NCBI GenBank assembly: GCA_041744215.1 | Contig: JBGTLG010000026.1 | Location: 1-64,000 of the forward strand | Direction: 5' to 3' | Source of the DNA: Fimbriimonadales bacterium | GTDB taxonomy: Bacteria; Armatimonadota; Fimbriimonadia; Fimbriimonadales; ATM1 | Length of the DNA stretch: 64,000 nt | In this document: in pieces, positions 40,048 to 51,236 of the stretch | Layout of the letters: every line of letters starts with the position of its first letter | Position numbering within the stretch: position 1 is the first letter of the stretch | Position numbers and translations under genes: made by a program | The notes under the pieces: model-generated | The model's input: the letters and a program-made list of their open reading frames with translations, nothing else | The model's database searches: none | Told to the model about the DNA's origin: nothing

Positions 40048-42228
40048 CTACTCCGGCCCGCTCGCCGGGCAAATCTTTACAACAGATTTCTTAAACTCAG
40101 GAATCTTGCTCAAGGGGTCGAGCGCACGTTGGGTCAGGTTGTTTGCAGACCGTTTGCCAGGCCAGTGATAGGGAATGAAGATCGTGTCCGGGCGAATCGT
40201 CGTAACGACTTTCGCTTTTAGGACAACGTGACCGCGCCGACTCTCTACGCGCATCCACTCACCATCCGTAATGCCGTGCTCTTGCGCGAGCGTTGGATGG
40301 ATCTCCACATAAGGATCAGGGCACAGGTCGACAAGTCCGCCAATTCTGCGCGTTTGTGTCCCGCTGAGATAATGTGAGACGACGCGCCCAGTCGTCAGAA
40401 TAATTGGGTACTCATCGTCGGGCTCTTCTGCAGACGGTCGATGTGCGATCGGATGCAAGTGCGCCTTTCCGTCTGGCGTGTGAAACTTTAAGTCTTCAAA
40501 CAATCGCGGCGTGCCAGGATGACCAATCTCTGGGCACGGCCAGAACACACCCATCTCGGTCTCGATTCGCTCGTAGGTTATTCCGTAATAGTCCGCCGTA
40601 CCGCCTTTGCTCGCGACGCGAAGCTCATTGAAGATGTCTTCGGAGTTATTGTACTGGAAGTACTGTCCGCGACCCAATCGCTTTGCAAGTTCAAGAATGA
40701 TCTCAGTATCTGCCTTCGAGTCCCCAGGTGGATCAACAGCTTTTCTAATTCGAATCACCCGTCCCTCTGCGCTAGTACTCGTACCCTCTTCTTCTTCGTG
40801 CAGCGATCCGGCAAGTACGATGTCGGCGTGATGCGCGGTTTCGTTTAGAAAGAAGTCGATGGCCGTATAGTGCTCGAGTCTCGAAAGTGCTTCGCGCGTG
40901 AAATGTGAATCTGGAAGAGAGACAAGTGGATTGAAGCAGATCGAGATCAGCGCTTTGATTTCTCCGGCATGGATCATATTCATGATCTCTTGAGCTGTGT
41001 TGCCCTTCCCCGGAAGTTCTTCTTCGGGAATGCCCCACACTTCACAGATGTATTTTCGGTGTTCCGGATTCGTTATGTCCCGATTGCCGGGAAGTTGATC
41101 GCATTTGTGACCATGCTCTCGACCACCTTGGCCATTGCCTTGTCCTGTGATCGTTCCGTAACCGCAGCCGGGTTTGCCGAGTCTTCCTGTTGCAAGCACG
41201 AGGTTTATGCAAGCGAGCACATTGTCGACGCCTTTTGTATGATGTTCAATTCCCCGTGCGTGCAATAGAAAACTCGTTTTTGCCTCGCCCCACATTTTTC
41301 CGGCGCGAACGATGTCATCCACTTTTACTCCGCTGATAAGACTCGCATCTTCGAGCGATTGCGCGAGCGCGGCGGCTTTCGTTTCTTCCCATCCGCTCGT
41401 GTGCTGCGCAATGAACTCTTCATTCGCGTGGCCCTCTTCAATCATAACACGTAGAATCCCGATTAGTAGCGCCGAATCCGCGCCAGGACGTACCGGAAGG
41501 TGCAAATCGGCGGTCCGCGCCATCGGTGTCACCCGCGGGTCGATCATGATGAGTTGGGCGCCACGGTCGCGCGCGCGCCATATGTAGTCCGTTGTAATCG
41601 GAGCACATTCTGCGACGTTCGTGCCCGCACAGAGAATCACATCGGCGAGCAGAATGTCCTCCCAATAGTTTGCGGCGCGGTCGATACCAAATGCCTTTTT
41701 GTTTCCGGTGCCTGCGCTAACCATGCAGAGTCGCCCATTGTAGTCGAGCTCCTGTGTTTGAAGTGCAACACGCGCGAACTTGCCGATCAGATAGCTTTTC
41801 TCGTTTGTCAGTGAGACCCCTGAGAGGAGTGCAACCGCGTTCTTGCCGTACTGCTGCTGTACCCGCTGAATCTCGCGCACCGTGGTCGAAAAGGCCTCCT
41901 CCCAAGATATCGGCGCGAAGCCCGTTCCGTCGACTCGTTTCAGCGGACTTAGCAGCCGGTCGGGGTGATTGCCTTGCATGTATCGCTTCACACCCTTAGG
42001 ACAAAGTTTGCCTTTATTAAACGGAAACTCCTCCCAAGGTTCAAATCCAATCACCTTGTTGTCGCGAACCTTAAGCTGAATGCCGCACTGTTGACCGCAA
42101 AAGCAGCAGTGAGTCTTGATCAGCTTTTCGGGCGCGCCGCGCCCTCTCCAACCACCAGGCGGCTCATAGTTGAGGTGCGGTCCCCATTTTTCGACGAGGC
42201 TCTCGATTGCTACGGGCGGCTTTGCCAT
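40048..42228 (-). CDS. Molybdopterin oxidoreductase, NasC/NasA-type nitrate reductase catalytic subunit
   Basis: CFCGQQC..LCPKG [4Fe-4S] motif; NGRLCM; GQGNGQGGREHG.K.DQLPG; LTTGR; no Tat signal; narK and mobA nearby. Confidence 0.85.
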   Translation of the reverse strand: MAKPPVAIESLVEKWGPHLNYEPPGGWRGRGAPEKLIKTHCCFCGQQCGIQLKVRDNKVIGFEPWEEFPFNKGKLCPKGVKRYMQGNHPDRLLSPLKRVDGTGFAPISWEEAFSTTVREIQRVQQQYGKNAVALLSGVSLTNEKSYLIGKFARVALQTQELDYNGRLCMVSAGTGNKKAFGIDRAANYWEDILLADVILCAGTNVAECAPITTDYIWRARDRGAQLIMIDPRVTPMARTADLHLPVRPGADSALLIGILRVMIEEGHANEEFIAQHTSGWEETKAAALAQSLEDASLISGVKVDDIVRAGKMWGEAKTSFLLHARGIEHHTKGVDNVLACINLVLATGRLGKPGCGYGTITGQGNGQGGREHGHKCDQLPGNRDITNPEHRKYICEVWGIPEEELPGKGNTAQEIMNMIHAGEIKALISICFNPLVSLPDSHFTREALSRLEHYTAIDFFLNETAHHADIVLAGSLHEEEEGTSTSAEGRVIRIRKAVDPPGDSKADTEIILELAKRLGRGQYFQYNNSEDIFNELRVASKGGTADYYGITYERIETEMGVFWPCPEIGHPGTPRLFEDLKFHTPDGKAHLHPIAHRPSAEEPDDEYPIILTTGRVVSHYLSGTQTRRIGGLVDLCPDPYVEIHPTLAQEHGITDGEWMRVESRRGHVVLKAKVVTTIRPDTIFIPYHWPGKRSANNLTQRALDPLSKIPEFKKSVVKICPASGPE

Positions 42229-42302
42229 TTGTCTATCTTAGTCGATTTCTTTGAAACTCGACTCACTTACCGTGATAAAAAGTCGTGGTAGAACTGTGTG
42301 CG

Positions 42303-43655
42303 ATGCATGACGGAAGAGTACAATGGACGTCGAGACTAGTTTTCATACTCGCGGCTGCGGGGTCGGCCGTCGGCTTGGGCAACATTTGGCGATTTTCGTA
42401 TGCCGCGGGAACAGAGGGCGGCGGTGCATTCATTTTGATTTACCTCGCCGCGGCAGTATTCATAGGCTATCCGCTGTTGGTCACGGAGATTTCGATCGGA
42501 AGATCAACACGACGGAACCCAATCGGTGCGATCAAGGCCCTCGCCCCGGGCGCGCCTTGATGGCTGATCGGCGCAATCGGAGTACTCAGCGCTTTCGTAA
42601 TCCTGTCTTACTATTCCGTCGTCGCTGGCTGGGCGCTTGCCTACACGGTTGAATCTTTACGCGGGCTCTACTTGCCGGGAGTCGATCATGCCGAGCATTT
42701 CGCTAATCACACCAGGCAGCCGTTTGCACCGATTGCATGGCATGCGCTGTTTATGGCGATTACGATCGGCATCATTTCGATGGGTGTGGTGAAGGGAATT
42801 CAGCGTACTGTGCAAGTCTTGATGCCGATACTCTTTGTGCTGGTAGTTGTGATTATGGTTCGGTCAGTCACTCTCCCGGGCGCAGCAGAGGGAATCAGTT
42901 TCATCCTGCTCCCAGACTTTGGTGAGGTCACTCCGTTAACGTTTTTGCACGCAATTGCTCAAGCATTTTTTACGATTAGCCTTGGCATGGGCGCGATGAT
43001 CACTTATGGTAGTTACCTTCGCAAACAGGATGCCGTACCGAGCAGTGCAGGGGCAATCATTGGCATCGATACGGCAGTCGCTATCATCGCTGGGTTCGCA
43101 ATCTTTCCAGCCGTTTTTGCGTTCGGCTTCGATCCGGCGGCCGGCCCGGGACTTGCGTTCATCACCCTGCCAGGTGTGTTTACAGAGATGCCGCTCGGCG
43201 CACTCTTTGGCTTTCTGTTCTTTTTATTGCTCAGTATCGCCGCACTGACTTCCTCCATCTCGCTCCTGGAAGTCGTCGTTTCATGGCTAAAAGACGAGTA
43301 CAAGTGGAAGCGTGGAAAGGCGGCTCTCCTGGTCGGCATTGCTATGTTTCTCATCGGCATTTTGCCGAGCCTTGGATACAGCCTACTGAGTGATGTTCGA
43401 ATTCTTGGCATGGACATCTTAGACTCGTACGACTGGTTCGCTACCAGTGTTCTTCTGCCGCTGGGCGGGCTATTGACAATCCTATTCGCTGGCTACGTTT
43501 GGGGGGCGAAGAACCTAAGTGACGAAGCCAACATTGGCACAGGAAGGCTGCGGTTCGGCCCGGGGCGCGGATTCAGATTTCTAATCAAAGTCCTTGTCCC
43601 CCTCGCCGTGTTAGCGGTTTTGATTGCTGGGCTATACGAACGCTTTCATAGTTAG
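42303..43655 (+). pseudogene. NSS (neurotransmitter:sodium symporter) family transporter with an in-frame TGA at 42558-42560
   Basis: GSAVGLGNIWRF, GGGAF, LSYYSVVAGW, QAFFTISLG, AGPGLAF, AALTSSISLLE all in one frame, broken by one stop. Confidence 0.85.
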
Positions 43656-43915
43656 CGTGCAGACACGTCGCTATTTGAAGCGCATCATAGCGAAGGGGTA
43701 ACTGCGGAGTTGAGAATGGCCAGGAGACAGAACAAATGGCCGCAGGGCACCAAGATCATTCCGTAGCTAGATCGCCTGATGCAGCGACAGCGGATCAGCT
43801 CCCGTCGCGCGGAAGTGAATCCTTTCATTGGCATCTTCGCCTGGAAGGCGATGACTGAGACACCCGTCCATCCAGAAAGCAGACACTCAGCCCGATCGCA
43901 TTCCGTCAACTTAAC

Positions 43916-43929
43916 ATGATCGCGATCAT
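43916..43929. promoter_or_regulatory. Putative Crp/Fnr-family operator ATGAT-CGCG-ATCAT upstream of narK
   Basis: Perfect 14-bp palindrome; identical copy at 51223-51236. Confidence 0.75.
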
Positions 43930-43959
43930 ATCGCTGGGTCGTAAAGAGGCGATAGTCTT

Positions 43960-45453
43960 ATGACCGAAATGAGCGAAAGAGGGCCCGCGAATCGCGTTTT
44001 GTTTTTGAACACCCTCGCGTTCACGGTGTGCTTTGCCGTTTGGACGCTCTACGGCGTGCTGATCACCTTTCTTTCCGATCGTCAGGTGCTCGAACTCGAC
44101 AAAGCTCAGGTTGGGTGGCTGATCGGGATTCCCATCTTGTCCGGGTCGATTCTACGATTGCCGATCGGCCTCTGGACCGACCGATACGGAGGCAAGCCGG
44201 TGTACATCGGCGTGATGCTGTTCGCAGCCACTTCAGTGTTCCTGGTAAGTTTTGCAAACACATTTTGGGCGTTCTTCTTTGGAGGTCTCGCGTTTGGAAC
44301 TGCAGGCGCAGCGTTCGCGGTGGGGATTGCGTACTCGTCTGTTTGGTTCGCTAAGGAGAAGCAGGGAACTGCGCTCGGCATCTTCGGAATTGGAAACGCG
44401 GGAGCGGCTGTAACGACGCTCGCAGCTCCAGCGTTGCTTGCCGTGTTCACCGAAGGGGGCGCAAACCTTGAAGGTTGGCGCATGCTGCCCCGTGTGTACG
44501 CGATGGCACTCATCGTGATGACAGTCGTATTCGCGTTGCTTGCAGTCCCGCGCAAGGTCGAAGGCGCATCGGATCGAACCATCGGCGACATGCTCCGACC
44601 TTTACGAGACCTGCGAGTTTGGCGCTTCGGTCTCTATTACTTTCTCGTTTTTGGCGCGTTCGTTGCTCTCGCACAATGGCTTGTCCCTTACTATCTCAAC
44701 GTATACGGCATGTCTCTCGCGATGGCTGGATTGATGGCTTCTATCTTCAGTTTTCCGTCCGGTGTCGTTCGTGCACTCGGAGGATACATTAGCGACAAGT
44801 TCGGTGCGCGGTCGACGATGTACTGGGTTCTCGCGACGTGTGTTTTGTTTAGTCTGATGCTTGTTGCGCCGCGCATGGATATTAAGTCACCCGGTGAAGG
44901 AGTCATGGCAGAGAGAGCCGGCGTTGTGACCGGCGTTACCGAATCCACGGTTTCAGTCGATCAAAAGACCTACCCGCTGAAAATCCGCCCCGAGCAGGAC
45001 TCTCGCCTCATGGAGGAAGGAACGCTCGTGTTCCCAACTTTTGAGTCATGGCAGGAACCCGCGGTCGCTGTCGGGCAAGAAGTGAAAAAGCGCGAGCTTG
45101 TCGCCCGGGGCATCACGCATGTCTACTTCCAAGCCAACGTATGGATCTTCACTGCGCTGGTTTTTCTGCTCGGGATCTCGATGGGTATTGGTAAAGCCGC
45201 AGTGTATAAGCATATCCCCGAGTACTTCCCAAAAGATATCGGAGTCGTAGGCGGCATAGTCGGAGTCATAGGTGGGCTGGGAGGATTCTTCTGCCCGATC
45301 CTCTTCGGCTACATGCTCAAAGCAACGGGCGTTTGGACGACGTGTTGGCTCTTCCTGGGAATCATCGGGATCGTCAGCCTAGTGTGGATGCATATGGTTA
45401 TTCTAAAGATGACACGCGGCATGACCCCACCGGGTCCCCTGGACAAGAACTAA
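43960..45453 (+). CDS. narK: NarK-family nitrate/nitrite MFS transporter (NarK1-like) with a large loop insertion
   Basis: GSILRLPIG..TDRYGG, GTALGIFGIGNAG, RALGGYISDKFG, GIGKAAVYKHIP, GGLGGF. Confidence 0.9.
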   Translation: MTEMSERGPANRVLFLNTLAFTVCFAVWTLYGVLITFLSDRQVLELDKAQVGWLIGIPILSGSILRLPIGLWTDRYGGKPVYIGVMLFAATSVFLVSFANTFWAFFFGGLAFGTAGAAFAVGIAYSSVWFAKEKQGTALGIFGIGNAGAAVTTLAAPALLAVFTEGGANLEGWRMLPRVYAMALIVMTVVFALLAVPRKVEGASDRTIGDMLRPLRDLRVWRFGLYYFLVFGAFVALAQWLVPYYLNVYGMSLAMAGLMASIFSFPSGVVRALGGYISDKFGARSTMYWVLATCVLFSLMLVAPRMDIKSPGEGVMAERAGVVTGVTESTVSVDQKTYPLKIRPEQDSRLMEEGTLVFPTFESWQEPAVAVGQEVKKRELVARGITHVYFQANVWIFTALVFLLGISMGIGKAAVYKHIPEYFPKDIGVVGGIVGVIGGLGGFFCPILFGYMLKATGVWTTCWLFLGIIGIVSLVWMHMVILKMTRGMTPPGPLDKN

Positions 45454-45465
45454 GGAATGTAACGA

Positions 45466-46803
45466 ATGTCGAATAAGCAAGAATCTGCAAAGGGCAATGC
45501 CGGATGGAACCCGGAAGATGTTTCATTCTGGCAATCACAAGGAAGCAAAATCGCGTGGCGCAGTCTTTGGTTGACTACGTTTTGTTTGATCCTCTCATTC
45601 GCAACATGGTTCATGGTCAGCGCAATTGTAGTGAAGCTGTCCGGAATCGGCTTCAAGTTCACCGAATCGCAGCTGTTCTGGTTGAATGCAATGCCGGGAC
45701 TCGCCGCAGGCTCCCTTAGAATTGTCCACACGTTTTTGATTCCAATCTTTGGTACGCGACTAACCGTCACGATCTCGACTTTGCTGCTGCTTGTTCCTTG
45801 CATCGGTTGGGGCATGGCTGTCCAAAATCCAGACACAAGCTATGCGACTTTTATGGTTCTCGGGTTTCTGGCCGGGCTCGGAGGAGGCAACTTCAGCTCT
45901 TTCATGCCAAGCACGAGCCTGTTCTTCCCAAAGCGTCTTCAAGGCTCCGCGCTTGGAGTCCAAGCTGGAATCGGGAACTTTGGCGTGAGTGTCGCGCAAT
46001 TCACAATCCCCTGGGTCATCGGCTTCTCGATGATCGGGAGCCTTGGCGCAGCCCAAACTTTCACACAAGACGGCAAAGTCACAGAAATCTGGTTGCAAAA
46101 CGCGGCATATCTTTGGGTTCCATTTGTTGTCTTAGCAGGAGTACTCGCGTGGATCTCTTTGCGGAGCGTCCCCGTCAAGGCGACGTTCCGTGAGCAACTC
46201 GACATCTTCAAAGACAAGCACACATGGCTAATGACATCGCTCTACATGATGACGTTCGGCTCATTCAGCGGCTATGCGGCTGCGTTTCCGCTCTTGATAA
46301 GAAACGTTTATGGGAAGTTCGACGGAGCGCCTGAGCCCCTTGCGTACGCGTTTCTCGGACCGCTAATTGGCGCGGGCATTCGAGCTGCCTTTGGGCCAAT
46401 CAGCGATAAGCTCGGTGGAGCGAGAGTGACGATGCTGAGCGCTATCGGGCTGTTCGTTTGTGCGATTGGCGTCACCTTTTTTACGAATCCAAACTCTCTC
46501 GACCAGTGGCCCGGATTCCTTGCATTCATGCTGGGGCTGTTTCTATTCAGCGGAATCGGCAATGCCTCTACCTTCAAGCAAATGCCGATGATCTTTCCGC
46601 CGAGGCAAGCGGGAGGTGTGATCGGTTGGACCGCAGCAATCGCAGCTTACGGTCCCTTCCTGTTCTCGGTACTTTTCGGCGCGGTCATCGCATCGACTGG
46701 ATCTCCAACTGCATTCTTTTACGGCGCAGCAGCGTTCTATGCGATCAACCTGTGGATTAACTGGTGGTTCTATATGCGCAAGAACGCGGAGAAGCCATGT
46801 TGA
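45466..46803 (+). CDS. narK: NarK-family nitrate/nitrite MFS transporter (NarK2-like)
   Basis: WNPED..FW, GLGGGNFSSFM, AGIGNFGVS, FGSFSG, SGIGNASTF. Confidence 0.9.
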   Translation: MSNKQESAKGNAGWNPEDVSFWQSQGSKIAWRSLWLTTFCLILSFATWFMVSAIVVKLSGIGFKFTESQLFWLNAMPGLAAGSLRIVHTFLIPIFGTRLTVTISTLLLLVPCIGWGMAVQNPDTSYATFMVLGFLAGLGGGNFSSFMPSTSLFFPKRLQGSALGVQAGIGNFGVSVAQFTIPWVIGFSMIGSLGAAQTFTQDGKVTEIWLQNAAYLWVPFVVLAGVLAWISLRSVPVKATFREQLDIFKDKHTWLMTSLYMMTFGSFSGYAAAFPLLIRNVYGKFDGAPEPLAYAFLGPLIGAGIRAAFGPISDKLGGARVTMLSAIGLFVCAIGVTFFTNPNSLDQWPGFLAFMLGLFLFSGIGNASTFKQMPMIFPPRQAGGVIGWTAAIAAYGPFLFSVLFGAVIASTGSPTAFFYGAAAFYAINLWINWWFYMRKNAEKPC

Positions 46804-47142
46804 TGTTAGTGCACGGACCCGCTTATCTCGCGGTGATGGGCAACAGCTTTTCAAGTACTGTTTCCGTGGGCATTTCTTCTCACATGATCATCGGCTTCGA
46901 GATGCGAGTGATTGCGAAGACGAATGACCTCGACGTGCGCCGCCTTGTTCCGCTCTGGACTGCTTTCGTTCCGCTAAACCTTGGACACGGTATGCGGGCT
47001 GGTCTCGCGCTTATGACAGACTATGCGACAACAGCCTTCATACCGACGGGTGTGGCAGGGTTCATAGTAGCGAGCGTACCAGTAATCTGCGCAGTTGATG
47101 TCTCCCGCCCACTCGCTCCGAAAGGGCTTAGAAGGACGTACA

Positions 47143-47874
47143 GTGTCACCTAAAAAGTCAACATCGACCAATCCAGCCAATGGAGCGCAGCCAAGTGTGC
47201 TGCAAGCATTGCAAGCTTGCTCGCTTTTGAACGCCTTGACGGATGATGAGCGGCTGGCGCTCGCGGAGAAGTCCTACCTGGCTTACGCTGAACGAGGAGA
47301 GGCGATTTGGGTTGCCGGTGCGCCTTCCCATTTCGTGGCCATTGTCGGGCAAGGCTTTGTAAAGATGACCAGAACAACGCCGCAGGGATCCGAAGTTGCG
47401 ATGGAGCTGCTTGGACCCGGACAGTGCTTCGGTCTGTTTGCTGCCCTTGAGGGTCGTTCCTATCCGCTGGCTGCGGTTGCCGTTACCAACACCTGGTACG
47501 CAAAGATTCCGACTCGGGAATTGATGGAAGTTTACAACCGGAGTTCAGGGTTCAAGGATCAAGCTGTCAGGTCTCTCGGCCCAAGGTTGCGCCGCGCACA
47601 CGACATGATGGCCAGAATGTCAACGGGAAAAGTTGATCAGAGAATCGCCGCCGTGTTGTTGATCCTCATGGATGCCTACGGGGAAAAAATCGACGGTAAG
47701 GTTAGGATCAGTGTTCCGTTGACGCGACAGGACCTGGCCGAAATGGCGGGCACGACTGTGGAGACTTCGATTAGGGTGATGAGTCGATGGCAAAAGGAAG
47801 GCATTGTCGCGACGGACCACCAGGTAATCACCATTGTCGATCCGATAGCGCTCGATGAGTCACTGTTGATGTAG
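47143..47874 (+). CDS. Crp/Fnr family transcriptional regulator
   Basis: cNMP-type barrel GQGFVK..GPGQCFG; HTH LTRQDLAEMAGTTVETSIR; no Fnr N-terminal Cys cluster. Confidence 0.92.
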   Translation: MSPKKSTSTNPANGAQPSVLQALQACSLLNALTDDERLALAEKSYLAYAERGEAIWVAGAPSHFVAIVGQGFVKMTRTTPQGSEVAMELLGPGQCFGLFAALEGRSYPLAAVAVTNTWYAKIPTRELMEVYNRSSGFKDQAVRSLGPRLRRAHDMMARMSTGKVDQRIAAVLLILMDAYGEKIDGKVRISVPLTRQDLAEMAGTTVETSIRVMSRWQKEGIVATDHQVITIVDPIALDESLLM

Positions 47875-48435
47875 CAAAGCGCTCAGCTCTGCGGGGGTGT
47901 TTGCTCCCAGTACACAGCGTGGGTCTAGGCGAGAATCTCGAAGATCGTCTTCATGTACAACCTGTACGTTCAGAGATCCAATCCACTCCATTACGCGTCG
48001 TTCTCCGCTCTCAACAAGACTGCGAGCTTCACTTAGGGTACGCGATGAGTAGAGTGCGCAAAGCGGCTGCAAACGACCACTAATCTCGGGAACCGCTGCG
48101 TCCGATTCTCCGATACGTTCTGACAGAAATGTGACTATGCGGGGGTCGAAAAGGGGAATGTCGCAAGAACAAAGAAAAAAACACTTCGCGTGCGGGTCAA
48201 ACGAAGCGATCGCGGTCAAAGGTCCGGAATGCGGCTCGGCGTCGGGAATCTGATCGAAATCGGTGGACGCTAGCTGGCCAAGCACAGTCAAGCTGTATCC
48301 AGCTTCCACCAGCAGCCTCGCGATCCGCACCCCGATAGGCTCACCCTCTATCAGCGTAGATGCCTTGTCCCGGCCCATGCGAGAACTTCGTCCACCCGCA
48401 AGCAGAACGCATTGAACAGTTTGGCACTTGCTCAC
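47860..48435 (-). CDS. mobA: Molybdenum cofactor guanylyltransferase
   Basis: LLAGGRSSRMGRDKA, GPL, CDIP, QPLCALY, ANTPAEL. Confidence 0.92.
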   Translation of the reverse strand: MSKCQTVQCVLLAGGRSSRMGRDKASTLIEGEPIGVRIARLLVEAGYSLTVLGQLASTDFDQIPDAEPHSGPLTAIASFDPHAKCFFLCSCDIPLFDPRIVTFLSERIGESDAAVPEISGRLQPLCALYSSRTLSEARSLVESGERRVMEWIGSLNVQVVHEDDLRDSRLDPRCVLGANTPAELSALLHQQ

Positions 48436-48439
48436 CAAG

Positions 48440-48455
48440 TGTGACCACCGTCATA
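48440..48455. promoter_or_regulatory. Degenerate Crp/Fnr-type site in the divergent mobA/CMD promoter region
   Basis: TGTGA-CCACCG-TCATA, same TGA-N6-TCATA geometry as the two perfect boxes. Confidence 0.5.
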
Positions 48456-48489
48456 GAGAAAAGGCGTACAATGCAGGAATAGAAGACAC

Positions 48490-48810
48490 ATGGGCGAACT
48501 TCCAAAACAGTACCGCAGATTCCTCGAGGATTATCCCGGAGTGGGCGAGGCATACCATGCTCTCGGCCAAGCCGTAGGCTCGGCAGGGCCGCTTGACGCA
48601 AAGACGCGGGAGCTGATCAAGATCGGCATCTCGCTGGCCGCGCGACAAGAGGGCGGCCTGCGGAGCCATGTGCGCAAGGCGCGCGATGCGGGCGCTACTG
48701 CCGATGAGATCCGACACGCGATTCTGCAAGCGACGACGACCGTCGGATTCCCCAACATGATGGCCGGGCTCTCATGGGCAAACGAGGTGATCGAAGAAGA
48801 TGATGCGTAG
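48490..48810 (+). CDS. Carboxymuconolactone decarboxylase (CMD) family protein
   Basis: GPLDAKTRELI, SHVRKA..GAT.DEI, TVGFP; no CxxC. Confidence 0.88.
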   Translation: MGELPKQYRRFLEDYPGVGEAYHALGQAVGSAGPLDAKTRELIKIGISLAARQEGGLRSHVRKARDAGATADEIRHAILQATTTVGFPNMMAGLSWANEVIEEDDA

Positions 48811-49837
48811 CAGCAAGCGATCGCAATGGATATCACTTGGGACCGGATTTGCGGCTGCAGCACTAGTGGTCGCTGGCATTTACTTTGGATCAGGGGGTCT
48901 GACTCGGTTTGATTCTCCGCTCGCTGCCTATGCAGCAGCGACAGTTTTTGCGGCGTTCGCCGTCGTCTACCGTTACACCATGTGGATTCAGCGCCCGCCC
49001 ACGTGGCGGTACTTCAAATCAGGATGGAAGCTCTTCTTGAAGCCGACCAGACTCCTTCCTAACATAGTCAAGTTTGTTGGGTTGCTCTGGCACAACATCA
49101 TTGCTCAGAGATTCATTGAAAAGCGTAGCCCTCAGCGCTGGATGGCGCACATGTGCATCGCCTGGGGTTGCATGATTGCGTTCGCCATAACGTTTCCGCT
49201 GAGTTGGGGATGGATACAATTCAATTCGGCGGAGAATGGAAAAGACTACGTCGTGGAGTTCATGGGAAGGGGGATAATCGCGTTTTCGCCAGATGGGCTG
49301 CTCGGATTTCTTTTCTTTAATGGACTGAACATTAGCGCGGTTCTGGTTCTCACCGGAGTCGCTCTCGCGATGCATCGGCGTGTTTTTGAACACGGGGCGC
49401 AAGCAGTCCAGTCTATCGCTTCCGATATGATTCCATTGTTCATTCTTTTTGCAGTCTCGGTAACTGGATTGATGCTGACAGCTAGTTACAAATTGATGGG
49501 AGGAACTCACTTCTCTTTCCTCTCGCTGCTCCACGCGTTCACCGTCATCGTCTTCCTGCTTTATCTGCCGTTTGGCAAGTTCTTCCATGTCATTCAGCGC
49601 CCCGCGCAATTGGGAGTGGCTTACTATAAGGAGGAAGGGTTGAGGGGAGAAATGGCGACATGCTTGAGATCACATGAACCTTACCAAACTCAATTGCATC
49701 ACGACGACTTGGTTGATGCGATGAAGGAGATAGGGTTCGATTTCGGGGCCCACCAAGATCTCTCTCCGGCTATAAAGCGCAAACTGATCGCACTCAATCA
49801 ATCTTCAGCGATTGACGGTGTGCCGTTTGTCGGGTGA
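48803..49837 (+). CDS. Integral membrane protein, NarI/nitrate reductase gamma-like (putative heme b anchor)
   Basis: About 6 TM segments; RWMAH, SVTGLML, LLH..LLYLPFGKFFHVIQRP. Confidence 0.7.
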   Translation: MRSSKRSQWISLGTGFAAAALVVAGIYFGSGGLTRFDSPLAAYAAATVFAAFAVVYRYTMWIQRPPTWRYFKSGWKLFLKPTRLLPNIVKFVGLLWHNIIAQRFIEKRSPQRWMAHMCIAWGCMIAFAITFPLSWGWIQFNSAENGKDYVVEFMGRGIIAFSPDGLLGFLFFNGLNISAVLVLTGVALAMHRRVFEHGAQAVQSIASDMIPLFILFAVSVTGLMLTASYKLMGGTHFSFLSLLHAFTVIVFLLYLPFGKFFHVIQRPAQLGVAYYKEEGLRGEMATCLRSHEPYQTQLHHDDLVDAMKEIGFDFGAHQDLSPAIKRKLIALNQSSAIDGVPFVG

Positions 49838-50071
49838 TCAATCTGCAGAATCTAAGCGATTGATGCCGACTAACATCCAGACGTTTATCAGCAGAATCGC
49901 GACGCTCGCAATACCGGCAGGTAGCGCAACTTCGTAATGCCCGGCAAGCATGTTCTCAAAAGCCGCCACGAATAGCCAAAGCTGAAGCATCACGAGAATG
50001 AGGATGAACGCGAGCAGCGCCCCGAATACGATGGACTTTTGTTCCTGACGCCCTGGGTGCTGTGAGTTCAA
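49838..50071 (-). CDS. Small 2-TM membrane protein (resembles DUF6755 from recall)
   Basis: LQLWLF motif; start overlaps the Rieske stop codon. Confidence 0.7.
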   Translation of the reverse strand: MNSQHPGRQEQKSIVFGALLAFILILVMLQLWLFVAAFENMLAGHYEVALPAGIASVAILLINVWMLVGINRLDSAD

Positions 50072-50562
50072 GATCCCTCCTTCAGCGTGACGCCTACCGC
50101 CCATATCTCGCCATTGCGCTCTTCAATCAAAATGCTCGGTAGCGGATGGGGAGGCGGCCCTTGAAGCACGCTGCCGTCGTCGACCGCGAACGCGCCGTTG
50201 TGACAGGGGCAGTAAAGGCGATTCTTGTCCGGCTCGTAATTGACGGGACAGGAAAGGTGCGTGCAACGACGTGAGTAAGCAACCAACTCACCGCTCGGCT
50301 TTCTCACCAAAATACACAGGTCATGCTGACGCGGATAACGGAACGACATCGCGGCGCCTGGGAGAAGAGCCCCTCCACCAACAATGTGCATCGGCTCGAA
50401 TCTACGCTCCTCCCGCGGTATCTTTGACCAAATGGCCATCGTCGCCGAACCAAGAGCCAGGCCTCCACTCGCGAGCGTGAGAAACTTGAAAAACTCGCGC
50501 CGACTGACATAGTTGTCCTCTTCCCAATCAATCGGAAAATCCTGTTGCAGCTTGCCTTCCAT
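50068..50562 (-). CDS. Rieske [2Fe-2S] protein with a twin-arginine signal/anchor
   Basis: SRREFFK plus hydrophobic helix; CTHLSC and CPCHNG; GPPPHPL. Confidence 0.92.
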   Translation of the reverse strand: MEGKLQQDFPIDWEEDNYVSRREFFKFLTLASGGLALGSATMAIWSKIPREERRFEPMHIVGGGALLPGAAMSFRYPRQHDLCILVRKPSGELVAYSRRCTHLSCPVNYEPDKNRLYCPCHNGAFAVDDGSVLQGPPPHPLPSILIEERNGEIWAVGVTLKEGS

Positions 50563-51161
50563 CAATTCGTCCTCGCAGTTTGGAGCAGATCACTCTTTCG
50601 AATCAATGGGTCGGACTGCACGGTCATGCGCTTCGTCCCGGACGGCATCATCAAGTGAACTTTGGTGTGGATCGTTCGGCCTCCAAAGTCAAATTCGTTG
50701 ATTGGCGTGCCTCCCCTGAAGGTAGCAATTTCTTCAGGAGTACCGAAGAACAGCGCCTGCGATGGACAGACGGTCGCACACATCGGTTTCTTTCCTGCCG
50801 AAGTGCGATCGTAACACATGTCGCACTTCATCATCTGATCGATTGCAGAGTCGTACTTCGGAACTCCAAACGGGCACGCGTACACACAGTTCGTGCAGCC
50901 AATACATCGCGGCTTCAATGAGGATTGAACGACTCCGTCCGGAGTCCGCTTGATTGCATCGGCTGGGCATACGGCGGCGCACGCAGGTTCGCTGCAATGC
51001 ATGCAGATAATGGGTGTGGTCTGAACCGTGTCACCTCGCATGATGGTTTCGAGATGAATCATGGAGACGCCTGCGTGTGTCTCGCATTCAGCGCAAGCCT
51101 CCACGCAGGCATTGCAGCCAATGCATCGACTCGGATCTATGTAGAACTGGCGCTCACTCAT
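50562..51161 (-). CDS. 4Fe-4S dicluster protein (DmsB/NrfC-like)
   Basis: [48 protein letters not shown]. Confidence 0.93.
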
Positions 51162-51222: not shown

Positions 51223-51236
51223 ATGATCGCGATCAT
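51223..51236. promoter_or_regulatory. Putative Crp/Fnr-family operator upstream of the Fe-S/Rieske operon
   Basis: ATGATCGCGATCAT; the 16-mer CATGATCGCGATCATA is identical to 43915-43930. Confidence 0.75.

Follow-up and report, generated by a model that had tools for sequence, protein, structure and literature searches.

A putative menaquinol-linked nitrate reductase combining a NasC-like catalytic subunit with Rieske and NarI-like membrane proteins in a Fimbriimonadales bacterium

Gene organization of the locus

The stretch of 64,000 nucleotides analysed here (positions 1 to 64,000 of contig JBGTLG010000026.1, assembly GCA_041744215.1, from a Fimbriimonadales bacterium of the phylum Armatimonadota), hereafter the window, carries a set of genes related to nitrate reduction (Table 1). 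Five of them encode a molybdenum (Mo) subunit similar to NasC, a four-cluster iron-sulfur (FeS) protein, a Rieske protein, a small DUF6755 protein with two transmembrane (TM) helices and a NarI-like putative cytochrome b, and we consider it rather likely that these five proteins are the subunits of one membrane-bound menaquinol:nitrate reductase. The original prediction, made from the letters of the window, had listed a DmsB-like FeS protein, a twin-arginine (RR) Rieske protein, a 2-TM protein, two NarK transporters, MobA, a CMD protein and a Crp/Fnr-family regulator, and each of them was recovered at its predicted position.

According to the open reading frame (ORF) map, the five putative subunit genes are spread over three transcription units in the window. 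The FeS, Rieske and DUF6755 genes form one operon of overlapping genes, in which the FeS stop codon overlaps the Rieske start codon, and the NarI-like gene lies convergent to this operon on the opposite strand, co-transcribed with the CMD gene, whose end overlaps the NarI-like start. The Mo gene is found 8 kb from the FeS-Rieske-DUF6755 triad as a transcription unit of its own; the one operon noted in the original prediction comprises the triad only, and neither the Mo gene nor the NarI-like gene.

Table 1. Genes and candidate regulatory elements of the locus, with positions in the window
Feature	Position	Strand	Evidence
Mo-bis(pyranopterin guanine dinucleotide) (Mo-bisPGD) catalytic subunit, NasC-like, 726 aa	40048-42228	-	Pfam, NCBIfam, translation
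SNF-type sodium-dependent transporter gene, interrupted by one in-frame TGA	42303-43655	+	ORF listing
Palindrome ATGATCGCGATCAT, copy 1, candidate operator	43916-43929		Window motif scan
NarK-family major facilitator superfamily (MFS) transporter 1 (NarK1), 497 aa	43960-45453	+	MFS_1 E 3e-44; TIGR00886 186.7 bits
NarK-family MFS transporter 2 (NarK2), 445 aa, NarU/NarK-like	45466-46803	+	NarU NF011608 E 4e-91; TIGR00886 303.5 bits
Crp/Fnr-family regulator, start codon uncertain	47095-47874	+	cNMP_binding + HTH_Crp_2
MobA-like molybdenum cofactor guanylyltransferase (mobA)	47860-48438	-	NTP_transf_3 E 7e-24
CMD/AhpD-like small protein, Cys-free	48490-48810	+	PF02627 E 1.6e-21
NarI/QmoC/EtfD-like putative cytochrome b, 6 TM, 345 aa	48800-49837	+	QmoC NF038018 E 4e-11
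DUF6755 2-TM hairpin protein	49838-50104	-	PF20540 85.4 bits
bc-type Rieske [2Fe-2S] protein, twin-Arg	50068-50565	-	PF00355
DmsB/NarH-type four-cluster FeS protein, 199 aa	50562-51161	-	Fer4_11; TIGR02951 E 3e-30
Palindrome ATGATCGCGATCAT, copy 2	51223-51236		Window motif scan

Features of the putative subunits

The Mo subunit contains the Pfam domains Molybdop_Fe4S4, Molybdopterin and Molydop_binding, together with an N-terminal four-Cys FS0 motif. As had been predicted, both the NGRLCM motif (read as YNGRLCM) and GQGNGQGGREHG are present in its translation, and the N-terminus shows no twin-arginine, consistent with the lack of an export signal. Among the NCBIfam models its best match was NasC (NF047855), with 837.7 bits, which lies below the curated cut-off of 1100; other models scored 594 bits (Fdh-alpha), 272 bits (NapA TIGR01706, cut-off 930) and 151.8 bits (AioA TIGR02693, cut-off 359), and no NarG model appeared among the best 25 of its 27 NCBIfam matches. 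In sequence, the solved structures nearest to it are formate dehydrogenases (the top three with E 2.7e-140 to 2.4e-133, further ones with E of about 1e-113 to 1e-99), and the structure of D. desulfuricans NapA ranks after formate dehydrogenases (E 6e-101). At the Mo-ligand position the alignment gives RLCM, that is Cys-Met, in the Mo subunit versus RLXH in F420-dependent formate dehydrogenase; a Cys-Met pair at this position marks nitrate reductases of the Nap/Nas type, such as NapA of D. desulfuricans. Both RLCM and DYNGRLCMVSAG are invariant in 25 Mo-subunit sequences from two phyla, which also share an N-terminal extension of about 35 residues with a conserved FGPH motif, and the RR motif is found in none of these 25 aligned N-termini.

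The four [4Fe-4S] motifs of the FeS protein are fully conserved, with all 16 Cys invariant in 18 sequences from two phyla, none of which carries an export signal. The NarH model TIGR01660 reached only 44 bits on this protein, versus a cut-off of 524. The Rieske protein contains the boxes CTHLSC...CPCHNG, which are of the bc type including the extra Cys pair, one hydrophobic TM helix and the sequence SRREFFKF, and it is also matched by the AioB model (E 7.8e-12). The cluster ligands, the extra Cys pair and the RR are invariant in alignments of 20 and 17 sequences, and the tail preceding the RR is likewise conserved (W-R/K-x-DFP-I/V-D/E), whereas an ordinary bc-type Rieske protein, found at the distant locus L075, has no such tail. 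These are the features of a head domain that would be inserted by the twin-arginine translocation (Tat) system and face outwards. The DUF6755 protein, encoded by a single-copy gene, scores well above the PF20540 gathering score of 27 bits (85.4 bits in the window and 84.9 bits in the genome search), and an alignment of 31 sequences revealed conserved Q41, W43 and L44 residues at the outer end of its first TM helix.

Translation of the FeS and Rieske genes is coupled, the most frequent spacing between the two matches being 0 nt (14 of the 70 related loci described below). Longer relatives of both proteins were also sought. No fused relative of the Rieske protein was found at E <= 1e-10, and 64 longer relatives of the FeS protein were found at E <= 1e-30 (P0296-P0359), many of which contain Mo, Rieske, DUF6755 or MFS domains according to precomputed Pfam annotation. 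Six of the seven Mo-FeS, FeS-Rieske and FeS-DUF6755 fusions examined, all from metagenome proteins, contained out-of-frame stretches, and such fusions were therefore treated mostly as frameshift or gene-calling artefacts of tightly overlapping operons. One fusion that reads cleanly, P0315, contains in order the FeS domain, the tail, the RR, one TM helix and the Rieske head, an order that would weakly suggest, as a single sequence, that the FeS domain and the Rieske head lie on opposite sides of the membrane.

The NarI-like protein matched the NCBIfam models QmoC NF038018 (E 4e-11), TcuB and, more weakly, TmcC and DsrM, all of them far below the curated cut-offs. The histidines that had looked conserved in the window alone (AH, LLH and PFGKFFH) correspond to H117, H245 and H263, and their conservation was borne out by homologues: the three residues are conserved in at least 95% of 44 sequences and invariant in 30, and H192 is also conserved. 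When a profile of 30 homologues was compared with NarI from the PDB, the last helix fell on helix V of E. coli NarI, and H245 and H263 on positions 187 and 205, which we take to be haem ligands, in a match that is weak (E of about 1.3). The AlphaFold2 model of the protein (pLDDT 76.7) contains six TM helices followed by a C-terminal domain, a tail of about 80 residues predicted to be cytoplasmic.

The family of this protein comprises 1108 representative clusters (50% identity) at E <= 0.001 and 205 at E <= 1e-30, and Binatia, Planctomycetota and Elusimicrobiota are the sources of its named members. The representative clusters include three (P0127, which reads cleanly, P0174 and P0189) in which an MFS domain of the NarK type is fused in front of the NarI-like domain. 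Because the C-terminus of MFS proteins lies inside the cell, these fusions would place the N-terminus of the NarI-like domain inside and, given six TM helices, its tail inside as well. A further candidate, P0264, in which NarI-like and Mo domains seemed to be fused, has garbled ends and was dropped as evidence. The unfused NarI-like relatives P0272, P0284 and P0286 bear the NCBI name 'MFS transporter', which has probably been carried over from the genuine NarK-NarI-like fusions.

Conservation of the gene set in other genomes

If the five proteins work together, their genes should recur together in other organisms, and this was found both in Fimbriimonadales loci and in a second phylum (that of genome G001). 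The Rieske alignment was scanned over one genome per species, and neighbouring genes were called by tblastn with the window proteins. This search gave 73 loci, of which 70 are close relatives, nearly all labelled Fimbriimonadales or Armatimonadota, with four bearing other, probably mis-binned, labels. The loci L075-L077, with distant Rieske relatives of 34-37% identity, were set aside, L075 being an ordinary locus of cytochrome b, Rieske and multihaem c genes.

The FeS gene adjoins the Rieske gene in all 70 loci and the DUF6755 gene does so in 68; an uninterrupted triad is seen in 68 loci. Flanks of 8 kb or more at each end are available for 36 loci, and in these a distance of up to 10 kb takes in the Mo gene in 31, the NarI-like gene in 25, narK1 in 24, the Crp-family gene in 21, mobA in 12 and the CMD gene in 11; across all 70 loci, narK1 and the Crp-family gene each lie within 10 kb in 33. 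Five genomes had no NarI-like gene in the 10-kb flank, and all five have it 11-15 kb away. In 15 Fimbriimonadales loci the genes FeS-Rieske-DUF6755-NarI-like-Mo are all on one strand, in 15 loci the NarI-like stop codon lies 4-59 nt ahead of the Mo start codon, and in the single-contig genome G517 the order FeS-Rieske-DUF6755-NarK1-NarI-like-Mo is likewise found on one strand.

In the second phylum, a DUF6755 gene was detected in 33 of the 301 sampled genomes (26 over the cut-off), and 18 regions were fetched, leaving out two of the 20 best matches, which are on short contigs, and the 13 weakest. DUF6755 is present in these 18 regions by construction. The Mo, FeS and Rieske genes are contiguous in 17 of them, the NarI-like gene stands in front in 15, the other three ending at contig edges, and a NarK-like gene is present in 11. 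The order NarI-like, Mo, FeS, Rieske, DUF6755 is that of a tight operon, with neighbouring genes often overlapping by 1-4 nt. In the protein atlas, the commonest phyla of the DUF6755 clusters are Chloroflexota, Bacteroidota and Acidobacteriota.

With respect to the C-terminal tail of the NarI-like protein (window 49640-49837), a CxxC...CxxC motif was observed in 12 of the 13 second-phylum copies (loci L107-L124) and in none of the 43 Fimbriimonadales copies, which keep one Cys and three His; since the motif is missing from all 43, the tail site is dispensable. Translational coupling links the CMD/AhpD-like protein to the NarI-like gene; of 17 Fimbriimonadales loci containing both genes, 13 have the CMD gene immediately before the NarI-like gene in the same orientation, and CMD genes were also observed near narK in two second-phylum loci (L122 and L123).

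Two carriers are of particular note with regard to cultivation and nitrate uptake. The Rieske homologue P0102, which NCBI names as coming from Fimbriimonas ginsengisoli, is 63% identical to the Rieske protein of the window, so that a cultured carrier seems to exist. At locus L025 (CP021423.1, organism Uphvl-Ar1) the triad, the Mo gene and a NarK1 homologue (67% identity) are present, and the genome announcement of Uphvl-Ar1 states that this organism cannot take up nitrate.

Genome context

The assembly to which the window belongs (2.68 Mb, 42 contigs) is 93.2% complete. Profile searches found two PF00384 proteins in it, the NasC-like Mo subunit and NuoG, indicating that the FeS/Rieske module has no other Mo partner and mobA no other client. 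No siroheme nitrite reductase domain (NIR_SIR, PF01077) and no NirK were found in this assembly by profile search. A weak NrfA-like match proved to be a 216-aa multihaem protein of the c7/c3 type, so that no NrfA was found, and the NirS-family match is marginal, with 25.7 bits, barely at the cut-off, and 100 of the 368 profile positions covered. The absence of NarG-type and nirB genes, which had been noted for the window, thus extends to the whole 2.68-Mb assembly, NarJ, NapB and NapC not having been the aim of any search.

DUF6755 is present in 32 of 251 Armatimonadota genomes, including 12 of 23 in the family f2, and in neither of the two other genomes of the window's own family. NIR_SIR is absent from 11 of the 13 genomes of the order that carry the cassette (this genome included), 10 of those 11 being 98-99% complete.

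Apart from the cassette protein, the genome encodes one Rieske protein, a subunit of a ring-hydroxylating oxygenase. Among sampled f2 genomes, a small Rieske gene was found next to DUF6755 in six of six that are cassette-positive, and four of six that are cassette-negative have none, in a tally that counts the unpublished genome G582 but does not depend on it; the cassette Rieske protein is not a housekeeping subunit. The only PF00033 gene of the genome is located on another contig (G000:C15:149819-151063, equivalent to L080:1465-2709) and encodes a 414-aa fusion of a b6-like N-terminal cytochrome b domain to a C-terminal cytochrome c domain. No Rieske gene lies beside it, its neighbours being PilZ and proteasome-type genes.

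Regulation, transport and neighbouring genes

The palindrome ATGATCGCGATCAT occurs as two exact, perfect copies in the 64 kb, with no other site at fewer than two mismatches, and their centres lie about 37 nt ahead of the narK1 start codon and about 68 nt ahead of the FeS start codon. In the related loci, the 250 nt preceding narK1 contained the corresponding sequence TGAT-N4-ATCA in 11 of 33 cases; the equivalent figures are 15 of 69 for the FeS gene, 4 of 47 for the Mo gene and none for the CMD gene (0/17) or the NarI-like gene (0/40). The background is 0.014 per 250 nt, an enrichment that is overstated because many of the related loci are close kin. In the window, no FNR-type box was found within two mismatches upstream of the Mo gene or of the CMD/NarI-like genes. 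Both palindromes are candidate operators, and the neighbouring Crp/Fnr-family protein is probably the one that binds them.

The FNR oxygen sensor carries an N-terminal Cys cluster for its [4Fe-4S] centre. The Crp/Fnr-family ORF of the window, as read, has two Cys only, and its product is therefore not an oxygen sensor of the FNR type. Both NarK-family proteins, NarK1 (186.7 bits) and NarK2 (303.5 bits), fall below the TIGR00886 cut-off of 311.7 bits. The mobA product was matched by MobA models with E 2e-27 to 3.5e-20, every one of them below its cut-off.

Upstream of the Mo gene there is an inverted repeat, AGTCGA-N12-TCGACT (42240-42263, 12-35 nt upstream of the start codon), which is unlike the palindrome of narK1 and the FeS gene. 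The in-frame TGA of the neighbouring SNF-family transporter gene is located at 42558-42560, and the same letters are found in a contig from a second sequencing run as well as in the probable source run, indicating that it is not a one-off assembly error; the gene could be a pseudogene or a case of recoding. The stretch is contained in four DNA runs, all from one study, and among the runs listed for it none is of RNA.

Proposed function and alternative explanations

The suggestion that the locus encodes a membrane- and quinone-coupled nitrate reductase is backed by comparative evidence, namely the co-occurrence of the subunit genes elsewhere and the lack of a siroheme partner in the genome. Considering the subunit sequences as well, a single menaquinol:nitrate reductase with a cytoplasmic active site and a redox loop like that of NarGHI is the rather likely function of the five proteins, and the gene set most likely serves nitrate respiration rather than assimilation. 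From the sequence comparisons we infer assembly into one complex, haem binding, topology, electron path, quinol donor and energy conservation, in the following scheme. Nitrate would enter the cell via NarK1/NarK2. The oxidation of menaquinol would take place on the outer side of a module in the membrane, consisting of the NarI-like protein, the hairpin of DUF6755 and the Rieske head inserted by Tat, and would release protons outside; in F. ginsengisoli, the menaquinones MK-10 and MK-11 have been reported (Hu et al. 2014, PMC4072686). The electrons would cross the membrane via one or more b haems, reach the FeS subunit in the cytoplasm with its four [4Fe-4S] clusters, and from there pass to FS0 and the Mo-bis(molybdopterin guanine dinucleotide) centre of the cytoplasmic NasC-like subunit, where nitrate would be reduced to nitrite with consumption of protons inside, closing a redox loop. 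MobA would supply the guanine dinucleotide cofactor, and the nitrite would be exported via NarK, because the genome shows no nitrite reductase.

Several observations weigh against this scheme. The match of the membrane protein to the Pfam NarI family PF02665 is weak (16.5 bits versus a cut-off of 22.9, E 0.0068), and conserved His residues lie near only three of the four positions that we take to be the haem ligands of NarI, H66 being matched by Ala; the outer haem has no second conserved ligand, so that a two-haem wire is unproven. In fold comparison with VIA-align, the model matched M. smegmatis EtfD (9ojn_A, Z 9.0, rmsd 5.0, 210 residues aligned) and NarI (1q16_C, Z 7.3, rmsd 5.1, 185 residues aligned), at Z values that helical bundles can reach by chance, and Foldseek against the PDB returned nothing at E <= 0.001. 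The scheme also leaves what the Rieske cluster adds unexplained: no gene of the cassette provides a Rieske electron with an outlet, NarGHI functions with no such subunit, and a Rieske head outside could not exchange electrons directly with an FeS subunit inside, despite the translational coupling of their genes. Neither a profile search nor tblastn queries with two TatC sequences of the same order detected TatC (PF00902) in the assembly. Of 41 genomes of the order, 40 encode TatC, among them both genomes of the same genus (39 of 40 without the one unpublished genome, G582), as do all five other carriers, and its absence here was therefore taken as a probable assembly gap; for the same reason, a Rieske head that stays inside was rejected as the preferred topology. 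In addition, NIR_SIR is present in 17 of the 19 cassette-bearing Armatimonadota genomes outside Fimbriimonadales, where this domain is near-universal anyway, and the only two f2 genomes with NIR_SIR both carry the cassette, so an assimilatory role in other hosts may also exist. Related genomes are kin, and the counts given above are not independent. Finally, F. ginsengisoli, the source of P0102, has been reported as unable to grow anaerobically (PMC4072686).

The comparisons speak neither for nor against energy conservation through a Rieske/cytochrome b pair, which the original prediction had considered possible. In a more radical design, which we regard as unlikely, the enzyme would constitute a fourth architectural class of prokaryotic nitrate reductase beside Nar, Nap and Nas. 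The Rieske head and an outer haem in the NarI fold would form a Qo-like site on the outer side of the membrane at which the oxidation of menaquinol is split or gated, with one path leading across the membrane to the NasC-type enzyme, and the Rieske cluster would either replace the missing distal-haem ligand set or feed a second acceptor in the periplasm. If so, the proton yield per electron would differ from that of NarGHI, and the class would be widespread in phyla of soil, sediment and hot springs, where it is now counted as 'assimilatory'.

There is also a small chance that the system is assimilatory, with the FeS and Rieske proteins forming an alternative donor chain for NasC and the nitrite being assimilated by an unrecognised or unassembled reductase. 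NasC is the best family match of the Mo subunit, the nasC-FeS-Rieske linkage was read in this way for Bacillus bataviensis (Heylen and Keltjens 2012, PMC3475470), NIR_SIR accompanies the cassette outside the order and in two f2 genomes, and a nitrite reductase could be missing from a genome that is 93% complete. However, NIR_SIR is absent both here and from most carriers of the order, including ten nearly complete genomes. Moreover, a soluble enzyme needs neither a 6-TM subunit resembling cytochrome b nor a Tat-type, bc-type Rieske protein nor a 2-TM subunit, and the paired NarK transporters with a Crp/Fnr-family regulator fit respiration better, Nas systems being typically under nitrogen control. 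A periplasmic catalytic unit, which we judge quite improbable, would have the Mo and FeS subunits hitch-hike on the Tat signal of the Rieske protein, as occurs in the export of AioAB, with the NarI-like protein serving only as quinol dehydrogenase and anchor, and possibly a Q-cycle-like loop of the kind proposed for haloarchaeal pNar. The Rieske protein does bear the only export signal of the set, the FeS and Rieske genes are coupled (0-nt spacing in 14/70 loci, overlap in the window), and a Rieske/cytochrome b module feeding an outward-facing Nar has been proposed for haloarchaea (PMC3509893). Yet the linkage of narK to the cassette in both phyla and the three fusion clusters of MFS and NarI-like domains argue for the use of nitrate inside, as do the NarI-like gene placed directly before the Mo gene, with its tail predicted inside, and, weakly, the single fusion P0315 with its FeS domain and Rieske head on opposite sides.

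That the locus merely juxtaposes two unrelated systems, a complex-III-like quinol oxidase made of FeS, Rieske and DUF6755 proteins, with or without the NarI-like one, and a soluble NasC, appears very unlikely. The arrangement in the window would allow it, with the Mo gene 8 kb away in a separate transcription unit, and so would the fact that the cluster Rieske protein is the only bc-type one in the genome while the cytochrome b-c fusion on contig C15 has no Rieske neighbour. Against it stand the single overlapping five-gene operons of the second phylum, the 15 one-strand Fimbriimonadales loci, the lack of any other Mo enzyme as partner and the presence of the triad in only 12 of 23 f2 genomes, which marks it as accessory rather than housekeeping. 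It is just as improbable that the enzyme acts on another substrate or in another direction, such as formate, chlorate or selenate, or nitrite oxidation, in spite of the fact that the closest structures by sequence are formate dehydrogenases, that the curated NasC cut-off is missed and that high-potential Rieske centres usually take electrons from substrates or quinols, given the Cys-Met instead of Sec/Cys-His at the ligand position, the invariance of DYNGRLCMVSAG in 25 sequences and the NarK-family transporters as recurrent neighbours.

If the five genes do encode a membrane-bound nitrate reductase, the consequences may reach beyond this bacterium. Sequences of the NasC/NasA/NarB type make up about one fifth of the MopB family in one survey (PMC10100899), and if a sizeable share of such genes serves a membrane-bound, probably respiratory enzyme, the counts of dissimilatory nitrate reduction in soils, sediments, bioreactors and hot springs would need correcting, together with the list of likely nitrite producers and the evolutionary scenarios for nitrate respiration. 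A Rieske centre in such an enzyme poses a clean bioenergetic question.

Comparison with known systems

The putative enzyme resembles NarGHI with NarK, as in E. coli, in its cytoplasmic Mo subunit with FS0, its four-cluster FeS subunit, its membrane subunit with a putative NarI fold and the adjacent NarK, and a redox loop would be expected in both. It differs in that the Mo subunit belongs to the NasC/NapA/FdhF clade with a Cys ligand, NarG being absent from the genome, the FeS subunit has 199 aa versus about 500 in NarH, the membrane subunit has six TM helices plus a tail and no His equivalent to H66, and Rieske and DUF6755 proteins are added. With respect to Nap, the Mo subunit has no RR motif and scores far below the cut-off of the NapA model (NapB and NapC were not searched separately). 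NasC, NarB and NasA belong to the same catalytic class (best match NF047855), being cytoplasmic, without signal peptide and with a Cys ligand, but they use soluble donors, whereas here the subunit, which misses the 1100-bit cut-off, is accompanied by four membrane or redox partners and NarK and by no siroheme nitrite reductase. According to Wells et al. (2023, PMC10100899), enzymes of this class reside in the cytoplasm and serve assimilation exclusively.

In B. bataviensis, genes for an iron-sulfur protein and a Rieske protein have been described in linkage with that of a NasC of 729 aa, a linkage 'shared with other species' for which an alternative assimilatory system was proposed (PMC3475470). 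By that description it is probably the same cassette, although no NarI-like or small membrane subunit is mentioned in the account of the linkage. The nearest functional analogy is the haloarchaeal pNar (NarB Rieske, NarC cytochrome b), where Rieske and cytochrome b genes beside Nar (Baymann et al. 2012, PMC3509893) also make up a nitrate reductase cluster with proposed quinol coupling; there, however, the enzyme is of the NarGH type and outward-facing with a bc1-type cytochrome b, whereas here it is of the NasC type without signal and the membrane protein is of the NarI/QmoC type.

AioAB shares with the locus a Mo-bisPGD subunit without signal and a bc-type Rieske subunit with a Tat signal, but the AioA model was not reached (151.8 versus 359 bits). 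Aio is moreover periplasmic, oxidises its substrate and has neither a four-cluster subunit nor a membrane cytochrome b. The best relatives of the NarI-like subunit in sequence and fold are QmoC, DsrM, TmcC and mycobacterial EtfD, membrane-bound b-type cytochromes connecting FeS proteins of the cytoplasm with the quinone pool; their partners, however, are CCG/HdrD-type or Qmo proteins instead of a Mo enzyme, a Rieske protein or DUF6755. The Rieske protein, which is of the bc type in its CTHLxC...CPCHxx boxes and has a Tat-type anchor, resembles that of the bc1 and b6f complexes, but the neighbouring membrane protein has no PF00033 match, the sole PF00033 gene lying on the other contig. In the openly accessible full-text literature, as distinct from subscription journals and closed supplements, we came across no account of either the five-gene system or DUF6755. 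Taken together, these comparisons point to a widespread, mis-annotated gene set that appears to encode a known kind of enzyme in a new build.

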